Origin: Squalus acanthias
Taxonomy: Eukaryota
Assembly: GCA_030390025.1 (NCBI GenBank)
Contig: CM059438.1
Location: 88,288,001-88,352,000, forward strand
DNA length: 64,000 bases
Direction: 5' to 3'
Shown: positions 147 through 40,982 of the stretch, in pieces
Layout: every line of letters starts with the position of its first letter
Numbering within the stretch: position 1 is the first letter of the stretch
Program-made: the position numbers and the translations under genes
The notes under the pieces: model-generated
What the model was told of the DNA's origin: nothing
Database searches by the model: none
Seen by the model: the letters and a program-made list of their open reading frames with translations, nothing else

Positions 147-305
147 CTGTGTTTTAATCTGCTCCACTTCCTGAGTCGAGAATTCAGTACGAAGGTACTG
201 GGGGATGTCCATCTCATCAACGATGTCTGATATCCGAGCTCTTAGGGAGTCACATTCCTGTACTGTGAGAAAATCTTCAATTGCAACAAAGCCATCTTTG
301 CTAAA
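147..305 (-). CDS. PHYHD1: PHYHD1 (phytanoyl-CoA dioxygenase domain-containing 1), second coding exon; gene continues past the left edge
   Basis: Translates [53 protein letters not shown] (53 codons), colinear with human [53 protein letters not shown]. Acceptor ttttgtcccatctccag (AG at 307-306), donor CAG|GTTGGT, phase 0 at both ends. Downstream of LRRC8A on the same strand, as in human. Confidence 0.93.
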
Positions 306-830: not shown

Positions 831-910
831 CTTTCTTTAATCTTCTAGGAAGTAGTACAGACAAAAAGAGTGACATTCAAAATGAGATTGCATGTTACTA
901 TATGGAGCAT

Positions 911-2815: not shown

Positions 2816-3187
2816 AGAAAGAAAGACTTGCATTTATATAGCGCCTTTCACAACCACCGGCTGTCCCAAAGCGCTTTACAGCCAATTAAGTACTTTTTGA
2901 AGTGTAGTCACTGTTGTAATGTAGGAGACACTGCAGCAAATTTGCACACAGCAAGCTCCCACAAACAGCAATGTGATAATGACCAGATTTTTTTTTTAAC
3001 TGAGTATGGAGGGATAAATATTGGCCAGGACACTGGGTATAACTCCCCTGCTCTTCTTCGAATTAGTGCCATGGGATCTTTTACGTCCACCTGAGAGGGC
3101 AGACGGGACCTCGGTTTAACGTCTCATCCGAAAGACGGCACCTCCGACAGTGCAGCACTCCCTCAGCACTGCACTGGAGTGTCAGCC
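2816..3187 (-). mobile_element. DeuSINE (SacSINE1-like), 5'-truncated
   Basis: Reverse complement of the core and tail of the 21628-22073 element (gaaagacttgcatttatatagcgcctttcac...cactgcactggagtgtcagcc). Confidence 0.85.
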
Positions 3188-3505
3188 TTGATTGGCCACT
3201 GAATGAGGCTAAGACTTTACAAATACCAGAAAATGGGCCTCTCTGTGAAACGTTAATCTGTTACACAGATGCTGCCAGGCCTGCTGTGTACTTCTTACAA
3301 TGCCCTATCTGTATGAATCTAGGTTTCTGTGAGTGCATTCATATGCAAGCTTCAGTGTCCAAGTGTAATGCTTTCCACTGCTGTGTAAACAGAGACTGGG
3401 ACCATTGATCTCAGAGCACACCACACTGGGAACTGTCAAAGCGAAAACCCCAGGAGCTGGGGCTATCCGTAGATCCCAGACCACAATTTAAATACAGTCT
3501 TCGAG

Positions 3506-6215
3506 GAACATAGGAACAGGAGTAGGCCATTTAGCCCTCGAGCCTGTTCCACAATTCAATGAGATCATGGGTGATCTGTGACCTAACTCCATATACCCGC
3601 CTTTGGCCCATATCCCTTAATACCTTTCGTTAACAAAAATCTATCAATCTCAGATTTAAAATTAACAATTGACCTAGCATCAACTGCCGTTTGCGGAGGA
3701 GAGTTACAAACTTCTACCACCCTTTGTGTGTAGAAGTGTTTCCTAACTTCACTCCTGAAAGGTCTGGCTCTAATTTTTAGACTCTGCCCCCTAGTCATAG
3801 ACTCTCCAACCAGTGGAAATAGTTTCTCTCTATCTACCCTATCAGTTCCCCTTAATATCTTAAAAACTTCGATCAAATTATCCCTTAACCTTCTAAATTC
3901 CAGGGAATACAACCCTAGTTTGTGTAATTGCTCCTCGTAATTTAACCCCTGGAGTCCGGGTATCATTCTGGTAAATCTACGCTACACTCCCGCCAAGGCC
4001 AATATATCCTTCCTAAGGTGTGGAGCCCAGAACTGCTCACAGTACTCCAAGTGTGATCTAACCAAGACTTTGTATAGCTGCAGCATAACTTCTACCCCCT
4101 TTTATTCTAGTCCTCTAGATATAAAGGCCAGCATTCCATTAGCCTTTTTGATTATTTTCTGTACCTGTCCATGACATTTCAATGATTATGTACCTGGATC
4201 CTTAAGTCTCTTTGGACCTCCACTGTTTCTAGCTTTTCACCATTTAGAAAGTACTTTGATCTATCCTTTTTAGGTCCACAGTGGATGACCTCACTCTTGC
4301 CTATATTGAAATCCATTTGCCACAGTTTTGCCCATTTACTTTATTAATATCTCTTTATAATATTATACTTCCCTCTACACTGCTTACAATGTCGCCTATC
4401 TTTGTGTCATCGGCAAACTTGGATATGTGGCTCTCTATCCCATCATCTAAGCCGTTAGTAAATACGGTGAATAGTTGAGGCCCCAACACAGCTCCTTGCA
4501 GGACACTGCTAGTCACATCCTGTCAGTTAGAGTGCCTCCCATTATTCCTACTCTCTGTCTCCTGCCATTCAGCCAATTTCATGACCAAGCCAATAATTTG
4601 CCTTCAATTCCATGAGCTTCAGCTTTAGCTAACAGTCTCTTTATGCGAGACTTTATCAAATGCCTTCTGGAAGTCCAAATAAATAACATCCATAGACATT
4701 CCCCTGTCCACTATTTTAGTCACCTCTTTAAAAAAATTCAGTCAGGTTCGTCAGGCATGACCTACCCTTTACAAATCCATGCTGGGTCTTTGATCAGCTG
4801 AAAATTTTCAAGGTGTTCAGTCACTCTATCCTTAATTATAGACTCTAGTAATTTCCTAGCAACAGATGTTAGGCTAACTGGTTTCCTTCTCTCACCTTTC
4901 TGAAATAGCGGAGTGACATGTGTAATTTTCCAATCTAAAGGAACAGTTCCTGAATCGAGAGAACTTTGGAAGATTATAGTTAGGGCATTTGCAATGTTCT
5001 CACCTATTTCCTTTAAAACCCTGGGATGGAAACCATCTGGTCCTGGGGATTTGTCACTCGTTAGTGCCATTATTTTCTTCATTACTGTTATTTTGCTTAC
5101 GTTAATATTATATTGAGTCCCTGTCCCTGATTCAATATTAGTTTCCATGGGATGTCCGGCATGCTATCCTCTTCCTCTACTGTAAATACTGATGTAAAGT
5201 AATTATTCAACATGTCCGCCATTTCCTTATTTTCATTGACAGTATCACCGTTATCAGTTTTCAAGGGGTCCACATTGCTCCTGGCCACCCTCTTTTTCCT
5301 AATATAATTGTAAAAATTCTTTGTGTTGATTTTGATATCCGTTGCAAGTTTCTTTTCATACTCCCGTTTTGTAGCTCATACTGTCTGTTTTGTCTCCTTT
5401 TGTTGTTCTTTGTATCTCTCCCAGTCGCCAGGATCTGTTCTAGTTTTTGCATTTTTGTATGCTTTTTCTTTTAGTTTTATGTTGTCCCTTACCACTTTTG
5501 TCGTCCATGGCTGTATTTTTTTGGAAAGTAGAGCTCCTGCCCCTTAGGGGTATAAACTGGTTCTGTGTCACGTTAAATTATTTTTTGAACAGCTCCCACT
5601 GATCTGTCAATTTATTCAATAACAGATTTTCCCAGTTTACTGTGGACAGTCTCTGTCTCATCCCAGTGAAAATCAGCCTTACCTAAATCTATAATCTTAG
5701 TAGCTGTTTTGTGTTTTTTGCTTTCAAACACAATGTTGAATTCAATCATATTATGATCGCTATTAGATAAATATTCATGTACTGTTAGGCTGTTAACTAA
5801 ATCTGGCTCATTACTCATTATTAAATTTAATATAGCCTGCCTCCTTGTTGGTTCGAGGACATATTGTTGCAGGAAACTACCCTGAACACACTCAAGAAAT
5901 TTGCTACCTTTCAGACACAAGCTAGTCTGCTTATCCCAATCTATATGAAAGTTGAAATCCCCCATGAAAGCCACTCTGCCTTTACTATATGCTTGTCTAA
6001 TCTCTGCATTTATACATTCTGCCACGACACAGCTGTTACCAGGGAGCCTATACACAACTCCCACTAGTCTTAAATTCTTTTATATTTCTTAATTCTACCC
6101 ATAAAGTCTCCACTGCCTGCTTATCTCTCATTATATCCTCTTTTATCATTGAAGTAATTTCATCCTTAATCACGAAGCCCCCTCTAACAGTTTCCCTATC
6201 CTTCCTGTCGACCTG
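3506..6215 (-). mobile_element. CR1-clade LINE, 5'-truncated, disrupted ORF2 (APE endonuclease + reverse transcriptase)
   Basis: Fragments MGDFNF..IDW, SDHNMIEF, KSPGPDGFHPRVLKE, PVSLTSV, LEFRRLR..LIEVFKIL, FYTQRVV; frameshifts; 3' tail gcctactcctgttcctatgttc. Confidence 0.93.
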
Positions 6216-6904
6216 CAATTCAGATTCGAAACTGAAGAGTAAAGCAACAAGCAAGGCAGGTAAAAATAGAAACTTAAGCAGAACTCTTAACAATTTGTTA
6301 TTCCTTCTGGGAATAAAATGGGAAATCTTTTTAGTTCCTATAAATGTAACCATCATGTGTGCAGTTGTGAAGTCATTATACACATCCCACGACACAGTGA
6401 TGTCAATAGTCTCCACAGTGATTTAAACTCAGAAAGTAAGATTGGGTTTTAGAGGAGCTTCTCCAAATATGGAATCACTCTCGGTTCACTTGTTGCAGTA
6501 TGAATCCACCCTGTGATCCATTGGTTTTACCTTCTCTGTGATGATTAGTTTTCCTTGTAAATAAAGTTAGGCACTTTCTGTGTTGACCTATGTGCAATCA
6601 ATCTGTGTGTGGATCAATGAAAACTGAAACGTGAAAACACTTGCAACACTTCTCCCCTTCTTTAAATATTCATTTAGGGCTAGATCTTAAACTAGTTTGA
6701 TGTCAGGCTATCAGTAGGAAATTAGAGCAGATCAGCAAACTGTGCGACTTGATTGTTGGTTTATGCTGACCTCAGGCTGGCAGTACGTTGTACAGTTGAC
6801 CACAGTGCCGCTGTGCTAGAGAGGGGAAAGTCAACCAGACTTCCCACATCGGATTGGTTATCTAGTGACATGTTGGAAAGTGCATACATGAAGACAAAGG
6901 GTGG

Positions 6905-7800
6905 GGACAGAATTGGAGCTGGCTGCTTCATCAATGATCTTCCTTCTGTCACAAGGTCAGGAGTGGATGTTTGCTGACAATTCCACAGTTTTCAGCTCCA
7001 TTCATAACTCCTCCAATAATGAAATAGCCCATGCCAGCCTACAGCAGGAGCTGGATAGCAGCCAGGCTTGGGCTGACAAGTGGTAGGTAATATTTGTGCC
7101 ACAAAAGGGCCAGTATAAATTGCAAATAAAAGAAAGCCCAACCATCTCCCCCTGAGCATCACTGGCACCAACATCGCTGAGTCCCCCATATCTTAGGGGT
7201 CACCATTGGCCAGAGACTTAACTAGAGGTGCCATATTAATCCCATGGCTACAAGAGCAGGAAGTACTCTGTAAAAAGTAGCACATCTCCTGACCCCTCAA
7301 AGCCTCTCCACCATCTACGCGCTCAAGTTAGGAGTGTAATAGAATACACACCACTCGCCTTGTGTTCAGCCTCAGTAACACTGAAAAAGCTCAAAATCAT
7401 CTAGAACTGCAGTTCATTTGATCAGCATCTCAGAATCCAACCCCTCCATCATCAGGGGACCATGGGTACAGTATGTATGATCTACAAGATGCACTGCAGT
7501 AACTCATTAAACTGGCTTCAACAGCACCTCCCAGCTCTATGACCTTGATTAGCTAGAAGGACAAGAGCAGCAATGTTGTAGGAACACCGACTCCCAAGTT
7601 CCCCTCAGAGTCACACACCATCCTGATTTTAACACATACAATTGTTCTTTCATCGTTGCTGGGGCAATAGTCTGAAATTTTCTCAATGACACCAAGGACT
7701 ACAGTGGTTGAAGGCGATGGCCCACCACCACCTTCTGAGGACAACTAGGGATTGGCAATAAATTTGGCCTTCTCGGAGTTGATCATATCCCTTCCCAAGA
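6905..7800 (+). mobile_element. Old degraded CR1-like LINE 3' portion
   Basis: FINDLPS / MFADNST / QAWADKW remnants; 3' tail (gggattggcaataaat) homologous to 13450-13630. Confidence 0.7.
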
Positions 7801-7897
7801 ACAAATTTTAAAATAAAATTCTGGAGTGGGGCTTGCGACAAGGGATAGCCCTTAAAATGTAATAATACTAGGCAGTATGAAAGGTTTATGTCATTGT

Positions 7898-7903
7898 TTT
7901 ATT
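7898..7903 (-). terminator. Candidate polyadenylation signal (AATAAA) of LRRC8D-like gene 2
   Basis: First AATAAA on the minus strand, about 140 nt after the stop at 8045. Confidence 0.4.
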
Positions 7904-8044
7904 CAAAATCTGATAGCCATAAATGTAATATGTTAGGTGGATTTAGTTGAAATCAATTGCCTTTTTTTTCTTACATCAAACATCTTTTTTCACGAGGTAG
8001 CAACTTCTTTGGAACTAAACTATTGATGTCTGATGGTTCTCATT

Positions 8045-10462
8045 CTAACTGCCACCCATCTTTTCTCTTATTTCTAAAGGAAGTGACTCAAAAACATATT
8101 GTTCTATCGTAAGTCCACTGAGTTTCAGCATAGTGCATTGTCCTATTTCCACTGGGAGTTTTTCCAAGTTGTTTCCTTGGAGTTCCAACTGAGATAGTTG
8201 GCTGAGCTTTGAGATCTTCCCGCTGAGGGATGAGATTAAGTTATTGCTTAGCTTCAGAGTCATGAGCTTGTTACATTTGAAAAGCTGATCTGGTAGACTT
8301 TCTATTTTATTGTAACCCAAATCCAAAAAATAGAGGTTTTTGAGGTTCCCGATATCAGTTGGAATTATAGAAATGTTGTTGTTGTGTGCATCGAAGTAAT
8401 GCAGTTTCTCAATGTTGAAAAGGACTTTTGGTAACATCTCGATCTGGTTGTTTGATAAGTAAAGATACTCCAGCTTTTTGATTAAATTAATAGTTGGAGG
8501 GATGGATTTGATCATGTTGAACCAGAACTTCAAACAGGATAACCTTTCCAGATATTGCAAGTTGGCAATTTCTTCAATTCTGGTCAGATTGTTACCTTTA
8601 AGGTCCAAGACTTGAAGTTTGGATAAGGTATAAATGGCATTTGGGATTTTATCCAACTCACAGTTGTGCAGTTCAATTTGGGTCAGATTTACCATTTTCT
8701 TTAAGATACTTAGGCTCAAGAGCTTAGTCTTATCATTGTGAATACAAAGCTTGAGCAGGTGGAATGCAACGTCGATGATGGTGGAGGGTATTTTGGAGAG
8801 ACTCGATTTTAGGTAAAGGACTTTCAGAGAGCGAAGTCCCTTCAAGGATTCCAGTTCCACAGCTTTTTTTTCAATAGCTAGCTTTCCAGTGAGGTACAGC
8901 TCTTTCAGCTGGATCAGTTTGTAGATCCATTCAGGGATTTCATCCCGACTCACATATTTAACTCCCACTTTTTTCAGTTGGTTTCTCAGCCACATCAAAG
9001 CTGATGGTGTAACTTCAGTTACACAATGTGAGAGCCAGATTTCTTCCAAATGGTCAAGTTGGGTTATTTTATTGGATATTTTAACATTACTACAAAGCTC
9101 GAGCCTTAAGACTTGTAGCTCAGTAACATCATAGACAGACTCAGGAATTCCTTGCAGCATGAAAAGGTACAACTCAAACTGGTCCTTCTTAGTTTTTGTT
9201 AGATGTTCCTTCACCTTCTCCATAGTCCAATCGTTATTCAAACTTAACAATTTTAGCTTTTTCTCACTCACCTCTGAGAGGAAGACTGCGAGACGTTTGC
9301 AATACAGAGTGTCATACTGATCGATCAAATGCAACAAGAAGGCAAAGTCATTTGTTACGTCAGGGATATCACTGAATTGGTTTTCTCCCCGTTTCTCAAA
9401 AGAGTATTGCTTCAGAGGTTTTCTGAAAACCCAAAATATTGTGTGGATACAAAGTAGCCAATAGATAACCACTAAACCCAGATACAGCAGGGCCATTTTC
9501 CCAATGAAACGAGCAGTGGTATAAGTACAATTGAAACTCTTGTAAAAAACCAATGATATCGCATTAGGTTCACATAAATTATAAAAGCTGACAACATAAA
9601 TATAGGCTGGAAAGTAACCAATAATAATTAAGCAATGTATAGTTTTGAACAATGTTTGCCCAGCATAAAATTTATAGATTGTATCTTCCTCTTCAACATG
9701 GAGTCTGAATTTCCTTACTTTCTCAAACAAAGCTTTGGCTTGCTCTGCGTCCTTCTTGTCCAGGGATGAGCCAGATCCTGGTGTGCTTGAGTAAATACGT
9801 GTAGGAACTTTAACGGTTGATGCGTCAGCTTTAATACTGATCCCATCGTCGTCACTTACAGTGGACCTGCGTGGTGCTAGGGCTTCTTCCAGTTCACTGG
9901 CATCTACACAGACTGCTGTAGATAGGGCTTTGGATGTCCATGGTGACTGAAAACAGTTATGAAGGATGTCAAGAAATTGTTGCATTTTGGAGCTTGTTTT
10001 AGGATATGTGAAACAGAAGTTACTGCAGATAATCAGAACAACTGTATGGAATAAAATTAGGTAAGAGAAGAACCTGGTAAACCAGGGAATTTGACTATAA
10101 CACATTTGATTGACATAATAGTACTGCCAATTGTATAACTTTGTAACCCTCCCTTGGCTGATACGAGGAAACGGATCTGGATTCATTTGTACTTGTGGAT
10201 TGGCACTGACATCAGATATTCTTGGAGTATTTTGCAGGGTTGAACTTATCTCATTATGTGCTGTTCCTTTGGTTTCACCAGCTTTATTGAGATATGGCAA
10301 ACAGAAAGTCTCATCCATGTAAAGCTGTATGCTGCAGCCAAAGATAGCTAACAACAACATAATAATACTCAGATAATCCATGAAAGTGTCCCACCAAGGT
10401 TTGAAGATCCGGAAGGCAGGTTGCTTGTCTTCCAAAGTTGAAACGTCACTGACCGAAAACAT
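8045..10462 (-). CDS. LRRC8 family VRAC subunit, divergent LRRC8D-like paralogue 2 (805 aa, single coding exon)
   Basis: Intact ORF with pannexin-like 4-TM domain (RIFKPWWDTFMDYL, NQMCY, LDKKDAEQAKALFEKVRKFR, FSDIPDVTNDFAFLLHLIDQYD) followed by the LRR array. Start MFSVSD aligns without gaps to LRRC8A M1 and sits 2 nt after acceptor tttccatttatttcag|GT ATG. Confidence 0.93.
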   Translation of the reverse strand: MFSVSDVSTLEDKQPAFRIFKPWWDTFMDYLSIIMLLLAIFGCSIQLYMDETFCLPYLNKAGETKGTAHNEISSTLQNTPRISDVSANPQVQMNPDPFPRISQGRVTKLYNWQYYYVNQMCYSQIPWFTRFFSYLILFHTVVLIICSNFCFTYPKTSSKMQQFLDILHNCFQSPWTSKALSTAVCVDASELEEALAPRRSTVSDDDGISIKADASTVKVPTRIYSSTPGSGSSLDKKDAEQAKALFEKVRKFRLHVEEEDTIYKFYAGQTLFKTIHCLIIIGYFPAYIYVVSFYNLCEPNAISLVFYKSFNCTYTTARFIGKMALLYLGLVVIYWLLCIHTIFWVFRKPLKQYSFEKRGENQFSDIPDVTNDFAFLLHLIDQYDTLYCKRLAVFLSEVSEKKLKLLSLNNDWTMEKVKEHLTKTKKDQFELYLFMLQGIPESVYDVTELQVLRLELCSNVKISNKITQLDHLEEIWLSHCVTEVTPSALMWLRNQLKKVGVKYVSRDEIPEWIYKLIQLKELYLTGKLAIEKKAVELESLKGLRSLKVLYLKSSLSKIPSTIIDVAFHLLKLCIHNDKTKLLSLSILKKMVNLTQIELHNCELDKIPNAIYTLSKLQVLDLKGNNLTRIEEIANLQYLERLSCLKFWFNMIKSIPPTINLIKKLEYLYLSNNQIEMLPKVLFNIEKLHYFDAHNNNISIIPTDIGNLKNLYFLDLGYNKIESLPDQLFKCNKLMTLKLSNNLISSLSGKISKLSQLSQLELQGNNLEKLPVEIGQCTMLKLSGLTIEQYVFESLPLEIREKMGGS

Positions 10463-10689
10463 ACCTGAAATAAATGGAAAAATTTGAAGTGATATTTGAA
10501 ACATACATTTTGTAGACAGTTGAGATGTTCATTCTTTACATTATACCTTTGGGTTTGGGTAATTCCAGGCACGTGCATGCCATATAGGGGTACCCACTTA
10601 ATGCTGCAGCGTAGAAGAGGGACTGAGGGCATAGTTGACAAAACACTGAAGCTAGGACAGTTCAATATAAAACTAGAAACATTATACAG

Positions 10690-11300
10690 TACTTACCTTA
10701 TATAAAACCTTAGCATGGCCTGATTTAGAATACTGTCCAGTTTTGACCTCCCCACCTCTCCCGCCACCCCCCAACCCCCCATATGTAGCAGGAGATAGCA
10801 AGGCCCTGGAGAAGGTCTGGATCACAGCAACAAGAATGAAAACTAGTCTTAGCTATCAGGATAGGGTCAAGGAACTAGAAGTTCACCTGATGCGGTAGCG
10901 CAAAACAGGCTGTATCGCATGGGCCTCCTGTTCAATTCTACTAACGTCAATGGGACTGAATTTCAAGCGTGGCGTATAACAGGTGGCCAATGCGATATGG
11001 CCCCTTCAGCGCTACCGCCCACGACGGATTTCAACCCCTAGGGTTTTGTTCATGGGAGAAGCGTAGACTTCGATGTGATATCGTTTTGGTTATTAAAATG
11101 ATAGATTCCGTTTGAGTGGATAGGTCATTTGACTTAGACAGGGATGGTAAAACTAGGAGCCATCAGTATAAGATACGAAACATGCAATCATGTTAGATGC
11201 CGTGAAGTATTAATTTTCACAGAGAGTTATTGACCTCTGGAATAGATTACCAAAGCATGTGGTAAGAACGGATTCACTGCAGTCCTTCAAAGGGGAGCTG
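10690..11300 (+). mobile_element. Degraded CR1 3' fragment interrupted by a small palindromic MITE-like insert (about 10878-11039)
   Basis: tataaaaccttagcatggcc...gaatactgtccagttttg, ggccctggagaagg and cacagagagttattgacctctggaat match the CR1 3' end seen at 56940-57370. The insert resembles 43215-43392 and 32610-32690. Confidence 0.6.
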
Positions 11301-13449
11301 TGGAAGTTGTGGACATCTCAGGTTATAGAGGCAGGGGCCACAGGCCAAGTGATACTGTTTGCCACAGGGCCCTCATAGTGCATTCTAACATACTCTAAAT
11401 AGAGTCCCAATAAATGTAGGATAGTTGACCTACCCTTAGCCGATGCGGTTCTTGAGCTGGTCACTAAAAAGTGTGCAGGACTCCGTCTAATTTCTATGTA
11501 GGGAGAAACTGGCCTTTGCTCAACACCTACCCACAGTAGCGTAGTTGAGATCCAAAACACAGCAGAGTTAATGGATCAGAACTGCATTACATCAGTTTTT
11601 GGCATTGTAACTTGATGCTGTTGTAACTTATATTTTTTAAAAGAGGTTTTCAAAGGAATTGTAAGGAAAGCGATAATTAAACTATCTTGAGGTCTGTTTA
11701 TAGTGTAGTAATATTAACTTTTAGTTTTTGCCTGTTAAGTGAGTTTCTGTTAGAAGGATGAAAATGTAATCATAAGACAGGTTTGCTTTATTTTGGAAAA
11801 ATGTAAGTTTTAGCAATGTTTCTGTCTCGGCATCTGTCTTCCTTACTTGTATCTGTGAATTGCCTTGGAACTTTTTTTTACCTTAAAAGCACCATGCAAG
11901 TGCAAGTTGTTTTTTGTTGTGCCCACTGTGGAACTGAGCTTTACATACTTGAAGGATCGAAATACGATCCCTGGCCTGTGCTGTGTTAACTGATCTCAGT
12001 CAGGGCAGTGGTAAGGATTGGCCTCAGAGCTCCCAAGCTTACGAAAGGTAAAAGGAGTTTCGGCTCCTAATGACTTTCCATGACTCTTGCCAGAAAGTGC
12101 ATGTGTGGATATTGGGGTGAGAATAGGACAGGGTCAACTGTGATATCATGGCTATCAAGGATGAGATGGATGTAAAAACATGTATGCAGTCAGGCTACAG
12201 TATATTATCACACAACAAACAATCCAAAGTATTTACTAGCTACCTGTAGAGATCCGACAAATCATGAATACAGAATGAGAATATTTTTCAAAGGCAGAGA
12301 CAAATTGGTAAAGAGAGAAATAATTAGGTAGGAAACAAATATTTTTACTTACTCAAGACAGAATTTTGGACTGCACTTAATCTGAATAGATAGCTTTTCC
12401 AATAAACATCAGAATTTGTCTTTTACAAATTATAAAGATAATAATTTAAGATCATTTAAGATAGCAAAATTAATAATACATGTTCAAACGGTTTCAGAAC
12501 TTTCAACTGAGATCCACCTGAGAAATATTGATAAAGTTCTAACAAATGGTTGGGTTTAGAATTTTTCTATTGATGATGTTGAATTTGGAATTTTTGATTG
12601 TCTTCAATACACCAATTCTTCTACATCCATTCAAACTCTTGACTTCACACAAATTGAAAGGAATGGCTTATCCCGGAGCTGGGCTGTCATCTATCCATTA
12701 AATATATGAATGTCTTGAGTTTAGCACACACCCGTCACACTCCGGATAGCCCACTTCAAAGTGTCACATTTTGTTACATATATAAAACAACCTTAAATGA
12801 GAGAGACAGCCATTTTGTGATGGGTTCTTCTGACCTGAAGCAAGAAATTTACAAGCAGTTACAATCACCCTCATGAGTTTACAAGCAGCTACAATCACGT
12901 GGATTTGCTTATTTGGACCACTTCTCCATGGGGAGTACTTGATCAATGGCCATCAGTGGTCCCAAAAGGACAAGCAAGCTGAACATGATAGCAGTGCTAT
13001 ACACCCAGACTACCTGGGAGCAATGCCATAGGGGATCTGCTATTAATTTAATAAAATACCACAGGCTATTAAAGTATTTATTTGAAATACAACTTTTTAT
13101 AACTGAAAAGCAGATATGAGAAAGTTGCAAACTTTCATTTATTAAATAATTTCCGGCATAAAGATTTGCTGATTGGGCTCCCCAATGGCTCAATGAATAA
13201 ATGTCCCATTAGGTGTACTACTGAGCCACAGAGACAAGGAAGGTTCTAAGTCTGATCCTGAGTCCTTGTTGCTTTAACCAAATCTTAGTCAGAGCAACAA
13301 TAGGGGGTAATACAATTGGGGATTGCTCCCTAAGGATGAGGAAGAAAAAAATTGTTTTAATTCTTGGATATGTATTTATTTTACTCTCCTGTGCCTCATC
13401 ACTCTCCTCAAAGATGCTTATGTCCTCATGGATGGATTTAGACAACTAC

Positions 13450-13630
13450 TGTACTGGGTCAAAATCCTGGAACTCCCTACCTAACAGCACTGTGGGAGTA
13501 CCTTCACCACACGGACTGCAGCGGTTCAAGAAGGCGGCTCACCACCACCTTCTCGAGGGCAATTAGGGATGGGCAATAAATGCTGGCCTTGCCAGCGATG
13601 CCCACATCCCATAAAAAATGAATAAAAAAA
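13450..13630 (+). mobile_element. CR1-like LINE 3' tail; further copies at about 30430-30660 (+), 55245-55520 (-), 58810-58905 (-)
   Basis: Shared sequence ctgggtcaaaatcctggaactccct...gggcaattagggatgggcaataaatgctggccttgccagcgatgcccacatccc. Confidence 0.75.
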
Positions 13631-13639
13631 GAGGTCCAA

Positions 13640-14760
13640 ATTCCCAGACAAGGCAGCTGAAGGACCCCTTGGGCCAGAGGTTGCATCTTCTGCAATTCCA
13701 CTTCCTCCTCACTTGTGCTTATGCTCACTAGATACTTTCATCTGCAACTCACTCCCCTGACATGGAGATATATATATATATCTGTGCTGGTGTTTGCCAC
13801 AGTAGGAGTGCAGGATGTTGGGTGCTGTGTGGCGCTAGGTTGAAGCTGTGCAGTTGGCTGGGCGGCTCTTCCTCTCGGGCACCTGGAAAAGCAGAAAAAG
13901 AACATACTTTACAATGCTTCCAGTAACACACTACTTGAAGCATAGCTACATGTGGCAAGAGATTGCAGTGTGTAACACTGAATTGCTGCAATGTGGGCCC
14001 ATGTTTGAAAGAATGAATGGCAGTATATAAGGAGCTATGCAATAAATAGTAACTGATACTTGCCATGAGCTGGCTGGAGGCCTCCAAATTCATCCCCTCC
14101 TCCCACCCCCCCCATCCCTACTGACTCCACACCCATAATCCTGATGACTTTCTCCTCATAAGGAGTCAAAGGTCGTAGCTTTGGTGAACCCTCTTCCTTC
14201 TGCAAGCACTGCTTTCTGTTACGTGTACTCTGCTCCTGCAAGCAGATATGAAAGGGACAGATGTAAGAAAGAGGATTGTGAAATGAATTGTAACAAAGTG
14301 CCCAGGACAACATCCACCTTATGTGAGTGTGTAAAGACACAGCTGCAAGGAACCCTATGTTGCCATAGTACTGCTTGATTGATCTGTTTAATGGCCAACA
14401 TGGTGATGACAGTGATATGTCAACAGGGACTAGTAAACCAGAAGACTCAGAATATGCCTATGCATTTACAGTAATCAGGAATTGGCAACATGCTCTGATT
14501 TTTCTCTCTCTTTTATGTTGCTCCAAGTTTATAATGAGGACCACATTGGCAAAAACAACCAATTAAGATGTTATCGCATGCATGCTCACTTACCTTGAGA
14601 AACCTTGCCTCCGCCAAATAAGTCTTCCTCACCCCCTCCTAGGGTTGGACGAGAGATCAGGCAACAATGACACTCTCTGTCACCTCCATTCATATTGCTC
14701 TGCCTGTACCGTATAATGCTGGGTAGTCATCTCCGCCTGGGCCTCATGTTACCAGGCAAG
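13640..14760 (-). mobile_element. Possible decayed PIF/Harbinger Myb/SANT-like accessory ORF
   Basis: QEQSTRNRKQCLQKEEGSPKLRPLTPYEEKVIRIMG resembles the 'TGGG.P....LTP.EE.V..IMG' segment of Harbinger Myb-like proteins (from recall); no intact ORF. Confidence 0.4.
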
Positions 14761-15142
14761 GTCAGCATTTTCATGTGCAGGTGGTATCATTGCTGTAAGG
14801 GGACCGTATTACTGGCCTCGTTGTCTGGGCTCACACATGAAGAATGGTCGTTTGAACGAGGAATTGCAGGGTGAGTGATGCCTGTGGATCCATACCCAGT
14901 GAGGAGCCATACCTTCAGCAGAGAAGGGATTGAAGAAAATTGGCAGAAAATGATGAAGATAAATGACTAAAGAACCTTAACACTTGCACATCAGGAAGCT
15001 GCCCCCATTTTTTTCTCCTACCCTCCTCTTCTAAAGACTTTAATTCTTTGCTGTTGTTCAGTTCTAAGGGTGTCCATCTATTGGAGCCTCACCCAAGTGG
15101 TCATTCCTCATATGTGAGCCTTGAGTAGTGAGTGTTGGGAGG

Positions 15143-15293
15143 CAATGTTCCTGCTAAGCTGCGCGGCCAGAGGTCCTGCACTGGCCGCTCACCAGCTTTT
15201 CAATGCAAGAAAATGTGCATGCGCGAAAATTTGACTGGGTCGCGCAGCCAGTTAAAGGGACCGCGCACCAAAAAGAAGTTACAGGGACCATTG
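15143..15293. mobile_element. hAT-type MITE with 8-bp TSD; related copies at about 42370-42507 and 60700-60833
   Basis: Termini CAATGTTCC...GGGACCATTG; perfect direct repeat TTGGGAGG at 15135-15142 and 15294-15301. Confidence 0.85.
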
Positions 15294-15949
15294 TTGGGAG
15301 GCTAATTGACGGCATCGCAATCAAGCCTGATCCTATTTCCATGTAACATCCAATACACTTGCATTTCCAGCATACCGGGGGGAGGAAGAGTGTGCAGGAC
15401 CTGGGGCTTAGGAGGAAAAAGAGGAGAAGCTTCACAGGAGCAATGACCATAGTAACATCAGTAAAATAGAGGGAGACAAGGAAAACTGTGATGGAGGGAG
15501 AAAATAATCAGGTGAGGAAACTTTTTCTTATATCTTTAAAAGACCAGGATCACACATAAAGAACGGCAATTGTGCAGACTACTGGAGCAATGCTGGTGCC
15601 GTTCACATGTACCTCAACACATGTCATCTGTTCGAAGAGAGAAAATTTGTTGAGCGGTACTGTTCAGTTTGGTAAAAGTTAAACAAAAAAAAAATCATGT
15701 GCTCCCACCATTGATGCAATTATGTCAATCTTTATATTTCTGATGCTTGATTGGCTGAAAAGGTGACCTCTGTTTTACCCAATCAGAGGCCATATTTTGC
15801 AAAACATAAAATACTGCAGATGCTGGAAATCTGAGACAAAAAACAAAAATGCTGGAAACACTCAGCAGGTCAGGCAACATATGTAAAGAAAGAAAATTGG
15901 TTAACTTTACAGGTTAAATTATTATTATTATTAATAAATTGTTATTCTT

Positions 15950-16272
15950 TCATAGAATCATAGAATGGTTACAGCACAAAAGGAGGCCATTCGGCCCGTC
16001 GAGCCCGTGCCGGCTCTCTGCAAGAGCACTTCAGCTAGTCCCACTCCCCCGCCCTTTCCCCGTAGCCCTGCAAATTTTTTTCCTTCAGGTACCTATCCAA
16101 TTCCCTTTTGAAAGCCACGATTGAATCTGCCTCCACCACCCTTTCAGGCAGTGCATTCCAGATCATAACCACTCGCTGCGTAAAAAAGTTTTTCCTCATG
16201 TCGCCTTTGGTTCTTCTGCCAATCACCTTAAATCTGTGTCCTCTGGTTCTTGACTTTTCCGCCAATGGGAAC
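15950..16272 (-). mobile_element. Young CR1 LINE 3' fragment
   Basis: SRTRGHRFKVIGRRTKGDMRKNFFTQRVVMIWNALP plus 3' UTR and ttctatgattctatga tail; highly similar to 57190-57513. Confidence 0.9.
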
Positions 16273-17318
16273 AGAAGTGTTCATGACGAAGGGTTATACC
16301 TGAACGATTAACCTTTGCCCTTCCTTTACAAATGCTGCCTGACTTGCTGATAAGTCTTCTCAGCATTTTGGGGTTTCGCCACATTTTGCAAAGCAGATTT
16401 CCACATCCAAAATGGACCGCCGGACTCCAGAGATAGAAGAAAAGAGGTAGGCAGTGTAAAACTCAAAAATATTTGGGGGGGAAATATAACATTAAAAAAT
16501 AGAATAGGGCTTAGAAATAGAATAAAGGAAAGTTAAAGAAAGATAAAATTGAGATGTTAGGAGTAAAGAGAAGTAAAGGAGTAAACTGAAGTAAAGTGTT
16601 TAATTTTTTTTTAATTACTCAATTTTTTAATTCTACTCCTGACATCTGATTAGCTTCATTACCATAATATTAGCGTTTGTTCCAACACTATAGTGTTTGA
16701 GCTGAATTTGTTTTGAAAGCCAGGCGGCGAGCATGAAATTCTCCTCATCTGCCCCAAGTTTATGAGTGCATTTATACTGCAGATACTCAAACCACAGAGC
16801 ACTAGTTGTCGCATTGTTCACGCTAGGGAGTACCTCATTTATAATAGCAAAAATGCTGCCTGGCCTGCGGAGTGTTTCCAGCGTTTTCTGTTGTTACCTC
16901 ATCTATAATGCCTGATTCTAATTGGAGTTCTCCTGCCAAGTGTGCTTAATGGTCTGCACAGAGCTCCCCTCCTGGCTTGTTAAGTTTTAAATGTTTTGAG
17001 AGCAGTGGCGTGAGTCCTTTAACACTTCTTAAACCTGGTGCAATGCTGCACTGGGGTTATACTCCATGCAGTGTCAAACCCAAGTGGTGTAAGAATGCCT
17101 CCTCCAGGGATCTCATGTTATCCGCCCCCCCCCCCCCCCCCTCCCCAGGAGTGAGGTTAGGACCTGAGTCCAGAGTTATACTGCAACTGTAACATCACTG
17201 CAATGACAATAAACATATTAGTGTTAATATCAAAAATCTGAAATGTGTGGTTAAAGTTGGCTGATTACATCGAGAATTATATCTCAAAACCAGACAAAAT
17301 TTTTTGTTCTTTTCTCAT

Positions 17319-17324
17319 TTTATT
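17319..17324 (-). terminator. Candidate polyadenylation signal (AATAAA) of LRRC8D-like gene 1
   Basis: First AATAAA I could find on the minus strand, about 410 nt after the stop at 17732. Confidence 0.35.
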
Positions 17325-17731
17325 AGGATTGTTGTATTTGTTCAAGTGTGATTCTCCAGTATAACCTAAAACGTCACCGGTTGAATTTTGCTTCAGATTT
17401 TCACCAATGGTTAAGTAATGAATCCCAGTTTGTACATTTAGTTCTGCTGGGTTATATACTCTTTCGTATTGGTCCTTCTTAATATGCAGAAAAGGCAAGC
17501 ACCTGAGTATCTTACCATTCGTTGCTTGATAAGGGACAGCCACTGAGCAATATGTCCTGTTAACGCATGATATTGTGGAGTAATCTTTGATTCTTAGCTC
17601 CGTTTGATTGCATGCTAAGACATTGCCAGAATGTGTAGTTGTCGGTTTGGTTAGGGGGGGGTTTAGAAATGTGTTTTCTCTTTTTGGGCCAGTAGGGCAA
17701 AAGAATCTTTGGTTTGATCACATTCCTTATT

Positions 17732-20227
17732 TTATACAAGGTGGTCCAATTCAGGATGTGACATCTTGTTGGGAATTAGGAGTCTGATCTCGGGAGGAGC
17801 CTCGGGGTTGGCATTCATATTTATTCTGATTTGTATAGGAAGTGTCTCGAACAAGTACTCATCCAATACCAGACCACTCTGTTTCAGTTTGCTGCACTGT
17901 GCTATCTCAACTGGGAGTTCTTCCAACGGATTTCCTTTGAGTTCCAGTTTTGAAAGTAGGGCACACTGCTGGATTTTCCCACTAAGGGATGTTAGTAAGT
18001 TATTGTTTAGCTTCAGAGTCTTGAGCTTCTTACACTGGAACAGCTCGTCTGGTAGAACTTCTAACTTATTGGAACTCAAATCTAGGTACTTCAGGTTTCT
18101 GAGGTATCTGACAGCCGTGGGAATCGCAGTCAGACGATTATTGCTCACGTCCAAATGATGTAGCTTCTGGATGTTAAACATACTATTTGGCAAGGTTTCA
18201 ATCTGATTGTTGGATGCATTAAAACGTTCAAGGTTGCCAATGTAACTAAAGGTATCTGGAACGGATTTGATTTTGTTGAAACTAAGATTGAAGGAGGACA
18301 ATCTGCGCAGGCGTTGCAAGCTTTCGATTTCCTCAATTGTGGAAAACTCGTTGCCCTGAAGGTTCAACACTTGCAGGTTGGAGAGGCCGAAGATGCCCTG
18401 CGGAATCTTCTCCAGGTCACAGTTTTGCAGATTAAGACGGGCGAGGTTGACCATGCTGCCCAGATTGTGGAGCATCTCCAGCTTGTTCTTGTTGTTGAAG
18501 ATCGACAGCTCGGTCAAGTGGGGCGCCACGTACAGCACGTTGAACGGGATCTTCACCAGGTTGCTGTTGATCTGGAGGACCTTCAAGTAGCGAAGCTCTT
18601 TTAAGAACTCCATCTCCAACGTTGTACTCTCGGTGTTGACGTTCCCAATCAAGCAAAGCTCTCGCAGTCTGGTCAGCTTACTGACCCACTCGGGCACCTC
18701 CTCGTGATCCGAAAAGGTGACTGACAGTGAGCGCAACTGGTTGCCTAAGAAGAATAACGCGGCTGGTTTGACGGTGACGATGCAGCTGACGATGGAGAGT
18801 TCTTCCAGGTGGACCAGCTGGGTGACCTTGGTGTTTATGTTAATATCGTTGCAAAGCTCCATCTTCAAGACCTGCACCTCTGTCACATCGTAGACGGCCT
18901 CGGGGATGCCTGTCAACATGAAGAGGTGGAGTTCCAACTGCTCCTTATTGTTTCGGATCAGCTGCTGCCTGACCTTGTCCGCCGTCCAGTCGCTGTTCAA
19001 GCTCAGCAGCTTCAGTTTTTTCTCGCTGGCCTCGGACAGGAAGATGGAGAACCGCTTGCAGTACAAGGGGTCGTACTGGTCGATCAGGTGCAGCAGGAAG
19101 GCGAAGTCGTTCTTGACGTTGGGGATGTCGCTGAACTGGGTTTCCCGTTTCTCGAAGGAGTACTGCTTCAGGGGCGTCCTCAGGACCCAGCTGAGGGTGC
19201 GGAAGCAGAGCAGGAGGTAGATGGCCACCAGAGACAGGTAGAGCAGGAGCAGCCGCCTGAGCAAGAAGGCCACACTGAAAGTGCAAATGAAAAGCCCGTA
19301 GCCCGTCACCGATTCTGTGCCGGGTCGACATATAATGTCAAAACCCACCGCTTCCACGAACACGGTGAAATAGCACAAAATCGCGAGGCACTGCAGGGTT
19401 TTAAGGACCAGCTGCCCAACATAGAGTTTGTAGATGGTGTCCTCTTTTTCCACGTGCAGCCTGAATTTCCTCACTTTCTCAAACAAGGCTTTGGCTCGCT
19501 CGCCATCCTTCTTGTCCAGCAGCTCGTACTGCCTCTGCATTACCGGGTTGTCGCGAGTGAAGCCTTTGCTCGGGTCGCTGATGCTATGGGCCACCGTCTT
19601 GAAGGAGGCCGGAATGCTTTTGCGCTTTTCTTGCGCCCTGATGTTCATGTTGCTGCTGGTCTCCGTGACCGCCAGAGAGAGGACATCGGTTGTCCAGGGC
19701 GACTCGAAACACTTCTCTAAGATAAAGATCAAGTGTTCTATCTTGGAGCTGGTCTTGGGATACTTGAACCAGAAGTTGCTGCAGACCATTAAGGCGACGG
19801 TGTGCAGCAGAATGAAATAGGAGAAATATTTGGGAAACCAGGGCACTGCATGGAAATAGCACGCCTGGTTGACATAGCGGTACTGCTGAAGGTCTAAGTT
19901 CGTTTTCCCTCCATAGATGGCATACACCGCATTGACGTGACTGAGTCCAGCGAATTCTGGGTGACCTGATCTACCACGAAGTTGAGTTACATTATGAACC
20001 GCGCTGGTTGAGTTGACTTCAGTGTGTGATCGGTTGCTGGAAGCAGAATCGGCCAGAATTGGCAAACAGACAGTCTTGTCCTTGTATATCTGTGTGGTGC
20101 CTCCAAACACAGCGACCATCAGCATGGTGATCGCTAAATAGTCCATGAAGGCGTCCCACCAGGGCTTAAAGATCCGGAAGGATGGTGGGGATTTACTGAC
20201 TGAAGAAATTTCTTCGAAGGTAAACAT
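17732..20227 (-). CDS. LRRC8 family VRAC subunit, divergent LRRC8D-like paralogue 1 (831 aa, single coding exon)
   Basis: Intact ORF: MFTFEE..RIFKPWWDAFMDYLA, KTNLDLQQY, SNFWFKYPKTSSK, LDKKDGERAKALFEKVRKFR, VKNDFAFLLHLIDQYDPLY, full LRR domain. ATG lies 2 nt after acceptor ctcttcttctgtatttag|GA ATG and aligns without gaps to LRRC8A M1. Confidence 0.94.
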   Translation of the reverse strand: MFTFEEISSVSKSPPSFRIFKPWWDAFMDYLAITMLMVAVFGGTTQIYKDKTVCLPILADSASSNRSHTEVNSTSAVHNVTQLRGRSGHPEFAGLSHVNAVYAIYGGKTNLDLQQYRYVNQACYFHAVPWFPKYFSYFILLHTVALMVCSNFWFKYPKTSSKIEHLIFILEKCFESPWTTDVLSLAVTETSSNMNIRAQEKRKSIPASFKTVAHSISDPSKGFTRDNPVMQRQYELLDKKDGERAKALFEKVRKFRLHVEKEDTIYKLYVGQLVLKTLQCLAILCYFTVFVEAVGFDIICRPGTESVTGYGLFICTFSVAFLLRRLLLLYLSLVAIYLLLCFRTLSWVLRTPLKQYSFEKRETQFSDIPNVKNDFAFLLHLIDQYDPLYCKRFSIFLSEASEKKLKLLSLNSDWTADKVRQQLIRNNKEQLELHLFMLTGIPEAVYDVTEVQVLKMELCNDININTKVTQLVHLEELSIVSCIVTVKPAALFFLGNQLRSLSVTFSDHEEVPEWVSKLTRLRELCLIGNVNTESTTLEMEFLKELRYLKVLQINSNLVKIPFNVLYVAPHLTELSIFNNKNKLEMLHNLGSMVNLARLNLQNCDLEKIPQGIFGLSNLQVLNLQGNEFSTIEEIESLQRLRRLSSFNLSFNKIKSVPDTFSYIGNLERFNASNNQIETLPNSMFNIQKLHHLDVSNNRLTAIPTAVRYLRNLKYLDLSSNKLEVLPDELFQCKKLKTLKLNNNLLTSLSGKIQQCALLSKLELKGNPLEELPVEIAQCSKLKQSGLVLDEYLFETLPIQIRINMNANPEAPPEIRLLIPNKMSHPELDHLV

Positions 20228-20429
20228 TCCTAAATACAGAAGAAGAGCACCATCATTCTTAGGACTCGTTCTCAAATACAGATAGGAAGATTCCCAAAAA
20301 ATGCATGGAGTGGACGAATTGTCACGAACAACAATTGGAACCTTGTTACCCCAATATCTAAAGCAGGCGTTTTTACAGGTTGTGAGTGTTGCCTGCCTAG
20401 CGGTCCCGCACATAGGCTACTACAGCTGA

Positions 20430-21627: not shown

Positions 21628-22073
21628 GGTGTCAGCTGTGGCTCAGTGGGTAGCACCCTCGCCTCTGAGTCATAGAAGGTTGTGGGTTCAAGTCCCACCT
21701 CCAGAGACTTGAGCACAAAAATCCAGGCTTACACTCCAGTGCAGTACTGAGGCTGTGCTGCTCTTTCGGATGAGATGCAAAACCGAGGCCCCGTCTGCTC
21801 TCTCAGGTGGACATAAAAGATCCCACGGCACTATATTGAGGAAGAGCAGGGGAGTTCCCCCGGTGTCTTGACCAATATTTATCCCTCAATCAACATCACT
21901 AAAACAGATTATCTGGTCATTATCACATTGCTGTTTGTGGGAGCTTACTGTGTGCAAATTGGCTGCCTGCATTTCCTACACTACAACAGTGACTACACTT
22001 CAAAAGTACTTAATTGGCTTTGAGATGTCCTGAGGTCGTGAAAGGTGCTATATAAATGCAAGTCTTTCTTTTC
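21628..22073 (+). mobile_element. Near full-length DeuSINE (SacSINE1/AmnSINE1-like), nested in an older SINE-like repeat
   Basis: Pol III A-box TGGCTCAGTGG (21639-21649) and B-box GTTCAAGTC (21686-21694); Deu core gatgagatgcaaaaccgaggccccgtctgctctctcaggtggac; L2-like tail tataaatgcaagtctttctt. Confidence 0.88.
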
Positions 22074-37176: not shown

Positions 37177-37452
37177 TCAGGCTTGTTCCTTGTCTGCTCG
37201 CCACAGCTGCTCCTTGACCTCAGACGGGAGTGTAGTGAAGAGATCGTCCTCTACCACGAGGCCGCTCCGTTTGAGTAGCCGGCATTCTCCGAGCTCCACA
37301 GGGAGACACTCTAGTCTGTTTCCACGAAGCTCCAGCTGTGTCAAGCTCGTCAGCTCGCCGACCCGTGACGGCAGTGATAGCAGGCAGTTATTCCCCAGGT
37401 TTAGGGTCCGGAGCTTACGACACTGGAAGAGTTCAGGTGGCAGTGTTTCAAT
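37177..37452 (-). CDS. LRRC8A: LRRC8A (SWELL1) last coding exon (91 aa + stop)
   Basis: IETLPPELFQCRKLR...KRSGLVVEDDLFTTLPSEVKEQLWRADKEQA*, with the diagnostic LRRC8A C-terminus; acceptor catcttgcag at 37454-37453, phase 0. Confidence 0.97.
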   Translation of the reverse strand: METLPPELFQCRKLRTLNLGNNCLLSLPSRVGELTSLTQLELRGNRLECLPVELGECRLLKRSGLVVEDDLFTTLPSEVKEQLWRADKEQA

Positions 37453-38810: not shown

Positions 38811-40982
38811 CCTGTTCGCAGTGACAGCGAAATACTGCAGATTCTGAAGGAATCCAATGTCCTGTGGTATGGAGGTTAGGTTATTATGACTCAAATCTAA
38901 GTACCGCAATTTGCGGCAATAGAAGAGCTGAGCGGGTATCTTTTCAATTTTGTTCCGGTTCAGGTAGAGCCTTTCCATATTGGTCAAAGTGCCAATCTGA
39001 ATGGGGATATAGGCAATGTGGTTATACCACAGCTTAAGGCAGACTAGGCGCCGTAGGTGCTGGAAGCTGATTATTTCCTCGATTGTCTTCAAGTTGTTGT
39101 CTTTGAGATCGATCTCCTGCAAGTTATGGAGACTGAAGATTGAGTGTGGGATTCGCTCCATGTCACAACGGATCAACTCCAATTCTGTCAGATTAACCAT
39201 CTTCTTTAGACTATTGAGGACCATAAGCTTGGTGCCCTCATTGTTGATGGACAATTTCTGCAGATGGACTCCAACATCCGTGACAACCTGTGGCAACTTT
39301 GTCAGGTTGCTCTTCAACCTCAAAACTTTGAGGCATTTGAGTTCCCGCAAGCCGTCAATCACAATGTAGCGATTGTTCTCCGCACTCAGATTCCCAGTTA
39401 GGTGAAGCTCTTCAAGGTTCTTCAGGCTGTAGATCCATAGAGGGATCTCTTTGATGTCTGTAAACTTAATATGTAGTGACTTCAGGTGCTCCCGTAAGAA
39501 GGCAAGAGCTGGTGCCTCAATCTTTGCTGGTGTGTGGTACAACCAGAGTTCTTTGAGGTTGGTAAGTTGGGCAATGATCGGAGGAATGGTGACATCCAGG
39601 ATCATCTCCAGTTTGAGCACTTCCAGCTCAGTCAGGTCAAAGATGGTGTCTGGGATTCCACTCAGCATGAAGAGGTGGAGCTCCAGTTTGTCCTGAGAGT
39701 TTTTCATGATCCTCTGCCGGAGTTTCTCCAGGGTCCATTCATTATTCAGATTGAGCTGCCGTAATTTGTTCTCGCTGACCTCAGACAGAAAGACGGCAAA
39801 ACGTTTCGAGTACAACGGATCGTACTGATCAATCAGGTGCAACATGAAAGCAAAATCATTCTTGACATCAGGGATGTCGCTGTAGCTGCTCTCCTCCCGA
39901 ATGGACTCGAACGAATACTTTTTCAGAGAACGCCGTAGCATCCACCAGAGTGTGTACATGCAAATGAGTCCATAGACAATCACTAAACTAATGTAAAAGG
40001 ATGCAAGGATCTTGAACAGTGTAGCTAATGGATGAGCGCACTGGTACACACGGTACCCTGTGAGGTTCTGAATGTCCACTATACAGGACACATCAAATTT
40101 TATATCATCAACATAATAAAGTGAGTAACTAATAATAAGAGCAAATTTGATTACTTTGATAATAGTCTGTCTCATGTAGAGTTGGTAAACTATATCCCCT
40201 TCCTCTACATGGGTACGGAATTTCTTTACTTTTTCAAACAGGGCTTTAGCTTGTTCGCCCTCCTTCTTATCCAGTACGCCCGTTTCTGAGCGATCAACTA
40301 TTCCCTGCTCGATGCGAGATTTTGTTCTTTGCAGCATGGGTACGCTGGCCTCCACATCCTCACTCACCGAGGAGGATTTCTTTGCCATTGAGCCATTCAT
40401 TTTAACAAATGACTGTTTCGGGTCACTCTCCTCCACCACAGTTTCAGATAGCGCCCGCGTTGTCCACGGCGAGTCAAAACATTTCAGAAGGATGGATACA
40501 AAGTGTTCCAGCTTTGAGCTGGTCCGAGGATATTTGAACCAGAAATTGCTACACACTAAGAACACCAGTGTGTGCAGAAGTACAAGGTATGGAAAGTATT
40601 TTGCAAACCAGTGAAGTTTATTCTCGTAGCATACCGCATCCACATAGTTGTACTGGTGCCGGTCCAAGTCATACTGGATACCCGTCGGTTCATTGGAAAA
40701 TGGGGGAAGGACTGAAGATGGTGGGAGGGATGCATTTGGGTATTCAGCGGTTGGCGACTCGGTGGGTAGTGGCTGAACAGGTTCAACGCACGTATTGTTC
40801 ATAACCCACTTGCAGGGTAAACAAATCATCTTGTCTTGTGTGACCTGCAGTGTGCCACCAAACACTGCTATCATAAGCATTACGATGGAGATGTAGTCCG
40901 TAAACACGTCCCACCATGGTTTCAAGATGCGGTAGGCAGGCTGGGTGTCAGCAAAATATCGTAGTTCTGTTACCGGAATCAT
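38811..40982 (-). CDS. LRRC8A: LRRC8A (SWELL1), obligatory VRAC subunit, main coding exon (724 codons; 815 aa in total)
   Basis: MIPVTELRYFADTQPAYRILKPWWDVFTDY..YDLDRHQYNYVDAVCY.., near-identical to human LRRC8A. Acceptor tctctcttaatttccag|GTGCGTG ATG (exon starts 40989); donor AGG|GTGAGT after ANR, the same intron position as in human. Confidence 0.98.

Follow-up and report, generated by a model that had tools for sequence, protein, structure and literature searches.

A tandem pair of LRRC8D-type genes of cartilaginous fishes, beside LRRC8A in Squalus acanthias, a probable survivor of the first vertebrate genome duplication

The window, which is the whole 64-kb stretch of Squalus acanthias DNA analysed here, carries three LRRC8 genes, all on the minus strand, in the order LRRC8A > g2 > g1 > PHYHD1, where g1 and g2 denote two additional members of the family. 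LRRC8A comprises a main coding exon (38811..40982, minus strand, 724 codons), with an acceptor AG 7 nt ahead of the ATG, and a last coding exon (37177..37452, minus strand), together encoding a protein of 815 aa. Both g2 (17732..20227, minus strand, 831 aa) and g1 (8045..10462, minus strand, 805 aa) are intact D-type LRRC8 genes with one coding exon, and the C-terminal intron of LRRC8A is missing from both. The g1 protein has a pannexin-like TM region (residues 1–342) followed by LRRs, and g2 ends in a C-terminal tail of ~25 aa that is conserved among its orthologues. Downstream of g1 lies a PHYHD1 coding exon of 53 codons (147..305, minus strand), bounded by AG...GT, which matches Pfam PhyH (E 2.8e-4) and PDB 2opw, a PHYHD1 structure (E 2.2e-14).

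An AG resembling a splice acceptor stands 2 nt ahead of the g1 ATG (10465..10466, minus strand), with a pyrimidine fraction of 0.74 that is equalled or exceeded by 5.5% of the 4105 AGs on the same strand, and a 5′ UTR intron may therefore precede the g1 ATG. A similar AG stands 2 nt ahead of the g2 ATG (20230..20231, minus strand), and the longer g2 ORF that starts at 20413 is probably intron read-through. No fourth LRRC8 gene or C/E-type relic was found in the window, including the interval between LRRC8A and g2; a 38-row family profile run against 2788 six-frame pieces of the window recovered the four known exons only, the next best having E 0.41. Upstream of LRRC8A, a Pfam scan of 150 of the 223 ORFs of at least 62 aa plus 6 more, from which small exons would escape, gave no match to KYAT1. 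In the section of a cattle gene list given in PMC13491712, the order is KYAT1, LOC104968656, LRRC8A, PHYHD1 and DOLK, with LRRC8A and PHYHD1 as direct neighbours, and the relevant part of PMC6989662 places both genes on human chromosome 9. The extra D-type genes thus occupy the gap between two genes that adjoin in cattle.

Against solved chains, both proteins score highest with LRRC8D (LRRC8D/A/C: 829/763/755 bits for g1, 844/733/729 bits for g2), and both contain Pfam PF12534 (E 1e-102 and 2e-115, respectively) in addition to LRR families. The motifs by which a preliminary description had assigned them to LRRC8D are all present in the pair (MF(S/T), FMDYL, NQ(M/A)CY, (T/K)YPKT, KKD(A/G)E, EKVRKFR, PLKQYSFEK and VA(F/P)HL); the LRRC8D versions that it listed occur in a named bat LRRC8D (P0017), and those it gave for LRRC8A occur in the LRRC8A of the window. 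Its account of the cysteines likewise agrees with the alignment, in which the equivalents of C54, C113, C295 and C310 are kept in 9/9 g1 rows and in every covering g2 row (9 or 10 of 10), and the second EL1 cysteine pair is missing, the C57 equivalent being absent in all g1 and g2 rows. At 82 columns compared with shark LRRC8A alone, g1 agrees with D at 38 and with A at 11, and g2 at 36 and 11. A single branch separates the D-type clade (D, the D3 lineage described below, and g1/g2) from A, C and E, with support of 100/100 in the main tree and 100 with divergent outgroups, LRRC8B lying outside the sampling. It is a firm conclusion that g1 and g2 are D-type genes and not LRRC8A copies.

Several of these characters have a wider distribution in the family. 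NQMCY is also found in LRRC8C and PLKxYSF in LRRC8E, so neither is D-specific, and since LRRC8C too is missing the second EL1 cysteine pair, that loss is not D-specific either. After EKVRKFR, g1 and g2 read LHVE as in C/E, where D has AHVE. The proline of VAPHL is shared by g2 with D (93 of 96 rows) and not with the commoner states of D3.

The nearest named proteins come from sawshark and sevengill shark and are 81–88% identical; orthologues already carry the label ‘LRRC8D-like’ or similar in NCBI and UniRef. Among the best 120 of 1103 matches to a g2 query, both g1 and g2 orthologues occur in sharks, rays and Callorhinchus. The g1 clade (9 rows) and the g2 clade (10 rows) are both entirely chondrichthyan, with Callorhinchus basal in each. 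As g1 and g2 each have chimaera, shark and ray orthologues, the tandem pair predates the living cartilaginous fishes, that is, the chimaera–shark split. The two proteins are 51% identical, with identities of 0.65, 0.73 and 0.44 at the three codon positions, a pattern that points to an old duplication under protein-level constraint. Between Callorhinchus and Heptranchias, identity is 69% for g1, 66% for g2 and 91% for D; g1 and g2 evolve ~3–4 times faster than D, and their frames have stayed intact over a span of ~400 My.

Linkage was followed through contig size, a proxy whose value may, for multi-member clusters, stem from another member. By this measure, the g1 and g2 orthologues lie on a same-size contig in 4/4 species giving both (Heptranchias, Callorhinchus, Rhinoraja and Carcharodon). 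Canonical LRRC8D lies on a contig of another size in six chondrichthyans (Heptranchias, Callorhinchus, Rhinoraja, Mustelus, Heterodontus and Mobula hypostoma). Judged from these six species, the pair is not a translocated sole D orthologue, a reading that the preliminary description had itself raised. Nor do g1 and g2 qualify as LRRC8D orthologues in a narrower sense, as they fall outside the gnathostome LRRC8D clade and sit between LRRC8A and PHYHD1, not in the B-C-D tandem cluster.

A further lineage emerged from a snake gene model in which LRRC8E is fused to a D-like half. With this half as query (best 120 of 851 matches), a third D-type lineage was recovered, here called D3, which corresponds to ‘LRRC8D-like’ at NCBI, to ‘si:ch211-106h11’ of coelacanth in UniRef and to skate Lrrc8d-3. 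Its holders among the matches listed are sharks, skates, bichir, sturgeon, lungfish, coelacanth, amphibians and turtles. D3 and LRRC8E carry successive locus tags in Xenopus tropicalis and in Hymenochirus, and their contigs are of the same size in Heterodontus, Cetorhinus, Polypterus, Protopterus and Carettochelys (E-part query, best 120 of 1011 matches). LRRC8C accompanies LRRC8D in bichir and Danionella, and a Caranx model fuses the two; in coelacanth, D and D3 are on contigs of one same size, which is unexplained. Abascal and Zardoya reportedly described in 2012 an extra fish or amphibian paralogue named ‘LRRC8F’, and a literature search for that term returned no papers. Two shark proteins labelled ‘C-like’ sit in the LRRC8E clade (100/99). 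An LRRC8E-clade gene therefore exists in sharks, contrary to the relevant part of PMC4316641, which found no LRRC8E in shark.

The main tree (LG+C20 PMSF) was computed from 38 rows, namely 35 named proteins and the three from the window, over 711 columns. It divides into (A,(C,E)) and ((g1,g2),(D,D3)), with support of 100/100 for g1+g2 and 99/96 for D+D3. All trees contain one LRRC8A and were built without LRRC8B, without named lamprey or hagfish sequences and without 32 unnamed matches; 5 of 15 screened unnamed representatives were also left out. The backbone was unchanged in a FastTree analysis of 268 named proteins with the three of the window (273 rows), in which the 19 rows of g1+g2 are all chondrichthyan, and again in a quick tree to which 10 unnamed, divergent members of the 50% library were added. 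None of these 10 joined g1+g2, and none was a clear cyclostome D-type; one fell in ray-finned D, two in D3 and three outside A/C/E/D. Strict separation of D+D3 from A/C/E is seen at 23 columns; in g1 and in g2 alike, 8 of these carry the D state, 6 the A/C/E state and 9 some other state, as expected of a lineage that branched off midway along the D stem.

AU tests on 14 fixed topologies rejected 13/13 alternatives under LG+F+G4 and 12/13 under PMSF with a guide tree that favoured placement as sister to D alone. That placement has p = 0.022 under LG and 0.066 under the PMSF mixture, and the placement as sister to D3 only has p = 0.02 under PMSF. The stem of g1+g2 is long (0.40, vs 0.10 for D+D3), which makes its exact attachment point the weak spot of the tree. 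We regard the D-type placement and the exclusion from the crown of D as firm, and consider the deepest branching order, with g1/g2 outside D+D3, likely but not certain. The description of the pair as a whole-genome-duplication sister of LRRC8D thus holds as to its D-type nature and ancient sisterhood, but its sister in the best tree is D together with D3, not D alone.

The positions of the related genes suggest where such a lineage came from. In Table 1 of PMC12182595, human LRRC8B, C and D are in tandem on chromosome 1, as the preliminary description had stated, with A on chromosome 9 and E on 19, and the passage of PMC6994961 that cites Abascal and Zardoya derives A and E from B and C. The gene tree has the form ((1-alpha,1-beta),2) that a 1R ohnologue predicts, this being the best tree in all analyses, with one alternative at p 0.066. 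We take the B-C-D cluster, D included, to lie on LER10/GGA8, and MAP2K7 presumably sits beside human LRRC8E. In the sections of the skate study used here (PMC10115646), Lrrc8a is on chromosome 31, and chromosome 39 carries the Lrrc8d-3.1 and Map2k7 baits, 20 kb from each other. The paralogon table of that study assigns LER10 (=GGA8) and LER39 to 1-alpha and 1-beta and LER31 (=GGA17) to M 2-alpha, with 2-beta missing; the 1-alpha and 1-beta cells of row M, blank in that table, appear to have been merged with row L. The tree fits the published skate paralogons, with LRRC8A on the 2-alpha copy and D3 on the 1-beta copy, and the pair is tied to its own segment indirectly, through its link to LRRC8A, which in the skate is on LER31 (M 2-alpha). 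Under the auto-then-allotetraploidy model as outlined in PMC7269912, survival of three segments should give ((D,D3),g) and (C,E), which matches the trees.

We therefore propose that early vertebrates would have possessed LRRC8 genes of three types (A/B, C/E and D) in one tandem cluster, from which the first genome duplication (1R) would have produced two clusters. One of these would have given rise to B-C-D and, after the jawed-vertebrate 2R, to E-D3; the other would have lost its C/E gene and yielded A and a D-type gene. The D-type gene beside A would have stayed between LRRC8A and PHYHD1, accelerated, undergone the tandem duplication into g2 and g1 before chimaeras split from sharks and rays, and been lost in bony vertebrates. 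This account, of an A/B-C/E-D cluster doubled at 1R whose D copy beside A survives in chondrichthyans, is as a whole likely, its 1R timing, ancestral three-gene order and subsequent loss being what we infer from trees and paralogons. An ancestral cluster duplicated in early vertebrates had already been suggested for the locus, and trees and skate paralogons (PMC10115646, in part) favour it, with the timing still a deduction. The suggested loss of the D copy in mammals seems to have been drawn too narrowly: 0/234 named bony-vertebrate proteins of the 273-row tree belong to g1+g2, within a sampling that rests on the best 120 of 1103, 851 and 1011 matches and the top 150 representatives. The D-type gene beside LRRC8A thus seems to have disappeared from the bony vertebrates sampled.

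Other origins were weighed with the AU tests and with site-heterogeneous simulations, in which 15 of 20 alignments per history were analysed with LG. The pair might descend from LRRC8D by an old segmental or transposing duplication, later than the divergence of D and D3 (after 2R and before or close to the gnathostome crown), which placed the copy next to LRRC8A, its fast evolution then drawing it towards the root of the tree. We consider this improbable, though the PMSF value of 0.066, the long stem and the VAPHL proline common to g2 and D all speak for it, and its simulated history (a near-polytomy with an internal branch of 0.012) returns the observed topology in 10/15 alignments. The observed LG log-likelihood gap of 15.2 over the D-only placement, however, exceeds all 15 simulated gaps (maximum 5.1), p is 0.022 under LG, and at 6 columns on which D and D3 agree the pair holds the A/C/E state. 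Such a copy must also have landed by chance, in the same orientation, beside a family member and at the very spot that the paralogons predict. A chondrichthyan-specific duplicate or retrocopy of shark LRRC8D could explain the single coding exon and the restriction to cartilaginous fishes in the 273-row tree, and yet it is very unlikely. Nesting beside shark LRRC8D, which the preliminary description had flagged as a rival outcome, did not occur (AU p 0.0002 under LG and 0.006 under PMSF; nesting in bony D is also rejected), and when such nesting is simulated the observed topology wins in 0/15 alignments, with a maximum gap of 9.8 against the 46.1 observed. The acceptor-like AG before both ATGs and the finding of no A-run above 9 nt within 4 kb downstream would speak against a retrocopy, although such marks decay with age.

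That the genes are diverged tandem copies of LRRC8A, or that g2 occupies the C/E position in the cluster, would agree with their adjacency and shared strand and with the LHVE motif, and nevertheless has a negligible probability. Grouping with LRRC8A, likewise flagged beforehand, is rejected (AU p 1.6e-6 under LG, 1.7e-5 under PMSF), as is every A, C or E placement (p ≤ 2e-4 in both models, with LRRC8B outside the sampling), and g1 and g2 have neither the C-terminal intron nor the R103 of LRRC8A.

The residues that line the pore depart from those of LRRC8D. At the filter position equivalent to R103, g2 of the window has Leu and g1 has Asn; across rows, g2 has I, F, Y, L or H, and g1 mostly Asn. 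D rows carry an aromatic residue there (human F143; Phe in 59 and Tyr in 37 of 96), and Phe or Tyr is found in 4 of the 9 covering g2-clade rows. Around this position in g1, D102 is replaced by Tyr, His or Phe and H104 by Trp (9/9 rows for the latter), giving Tyr-Asn-Trp at 102–104 in g1 of the window, and T44 is Ser in 9/9 g1 rows. The TM2 proline equivalent to P126 is lost in 18/18 covering g1/g2 rows and kept in 251 of 252 other covering rows. P147 and K235 are kept in g1/g2, as is acidic residue 6 in most rows. With Leu or Asn at the R103 equivalent and altered g1 neighbours, the pore properties of g1/g2 should differ from those of D; the selectivity of D is probably not transferable to them, and these substitutions suggest a remodelled pore neck.

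In the parts of PMC12182595 drawn upon here, LRRC8A is obligatory, the other subunits reach the membrane only with its help, the five characterised paralogues all act as parts of LRRC8A heteromers, and LRRC8D broadens organic permeability so that taurine, myo-inositol and other organics pass. Judged from their sequences, g1 and g2 probably act as accessory subunits, assembled together with LRRC8A into channels for anions and organic osmolytes that swelling activates. A different job for genes of the same origin, with g1 and perhaps g2 as a modulatory or inhibitory subunit or a channel of its own and not a conducting D-like partner, is a less likely but real prospect, suggested by the altered family-invariant positions (the P126 equivalent in g1/g2; T44 and H104 in g1). 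The retention of the four disulfide cysteines, P147, K235 and, in most rows, acidic residue 6 argues against it, as does the shared LRRC8A-heteromer role of the five paralogues (same parts of PMC12182595). Cartilaginous fishes in general hold much organic osmolyte, in the form of taurine, TMAO and betaine. More speculatively, and on sequence grounds, g1/g2 might represent a VRAC subunit type unseen in bony vertebrates, with a rebuilt neck and specialised for releasing organic osmolytes; with D3 and shark LRRC8E, the family might then amount to one three-gene cluster multiplied by two genome duplications, with five of the resulting copies kept in humans.

In the literature searched, no account of the origin of g1/g2 was found; the parts of PMC6679542 and PMC6028502 consulted hold no mention of the genes, and the portions consulted of the supplements to two ohnologue and ancestral-genome papers (PMC13450315, PMC8302630) hold no LRRC8 rows. 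Part of this story could already be told in the 2012 family paper and in the skate study's list of 19 ohnologues found only in chondrichthyans. The pair is real and represents a paralogue lineage new to an already known channel family, one that probably arose in the first duplication. Together with D3, it adds two paralogue lineages to a family treated as five genes in the reviews consulted. The combined tree and synteny account of how A, B-C-D and E reached three chromosomes helps explain the five human LRRC8 genes. For channel physiology, g1 and g2 are natural subunits with unusual filter residues.

Of the known systems, LRRC8D (PDB 6m04, 9dx7) is the best solved-structure match, sharing with g1/g2 the MF start, MDYL, KKD, VRKFR, AFLLH and the same four cysteines, but overall identity is only 47–49%, and g1/g2 differ in their Leu or Asn filter in place of Phe/Tyr, in the lost P126 equivalent and in a deletion of 1–2 residues in IL2. 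LRRC8A adjoins them on the same strand with the same domain plan, but it is 43–44% identical and has, unlike the pair, R103, the C57 cysteine and the C-terminal intron. D3 resembles the pair in being D-type, in its linkage to another LRRC8 gene and in being an extra paralogue with none seen among the mammal matches listed, but it is sister to D (99/96), lies on another paralogon and was retained from sharks to turtles. The pair is not a new kind of system, chondrichthyan-only ohnologues being a known class and the genes having already been auto-labelled ‘LRRC8D-like’. The 19 ohnologues that chondrichthyans retain and bony fishes have lost, as reported in the relevant section of PMC10115646, show the same pattern of differential loss, whereas here the survivor has also duplicated in tandem.

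The LRRC8 genes of the window vary in codon composition, with GC at the third codon position of 0.69 in the D-type gene g2 (17732-20227), 0.44 in the second D-type gene, g1 (8045-10462), and 0.57 in LRRC8A, giving a strong contrast between the adjoining g2 and g1. A PHYHD1 exon lies at 147-305 (minus strand), and the first coding exon and promoter of this gene are predicted to fall within 306-8044, though neither was pinpointed.

The window also holds repeats and mobile-element remains. A tandem array of a 21-bp unit (911-2146; 58.9 copies, 91% matches) gives rise to long open frames, which are probably spurious, and short minisatellites with periods of 47 and 39 occupy 45255-45352 and 52037-52233. 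Broken LINE-type retrotransposon copies, at 3583-6079 (minus) and 56044-57386 (plus), give endonuclease and RT Pfam matches. Fragmented ORFs at 43523-44828 (minus), which gave no Pfam match at 0.001, resemble a hAT/ZBED-type transposase. Five dispersed repeats of ~380 bp (2818-3193, 21680-22072, 50805-51224, 54123-54506 and 59966-60294) share 78-91% identity and form a SINE-like family.

Beyond the window, a third D-type LRRC8 lineage, D3, adjoins LRRC8E (P0148, P0128, P0145, P0158, P0175, P0136 and others). Among the best 120 of 851 matches, it is present at full length from sharks through turtles, the rattlesnake model comprising only half, and none of the mammal or bird matches listed belongs to it. 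In coelacanth, LRRC8D (P0065) and D3 (P0158) lie on equally long contigs (172,207,807), possibly reflecting a chromosome fusion; sharks and bichir differ in this respect.

LRRC8E is older than the shark-bony fish split, because the shark proteins P0405 and P0412, labelled LRRC8C-like, were placed in the LRRC8E clade and their contigs match those of D3 in size (best 120 of 1011 matches). Within the same matches, the sturgeon gene model P0375 fuses a C/E-type LRRC8 with RabGAP-TBC and zinc-finger domains. This fusion would fit EVI5/EVI5L as an LRRC8 neighbour.
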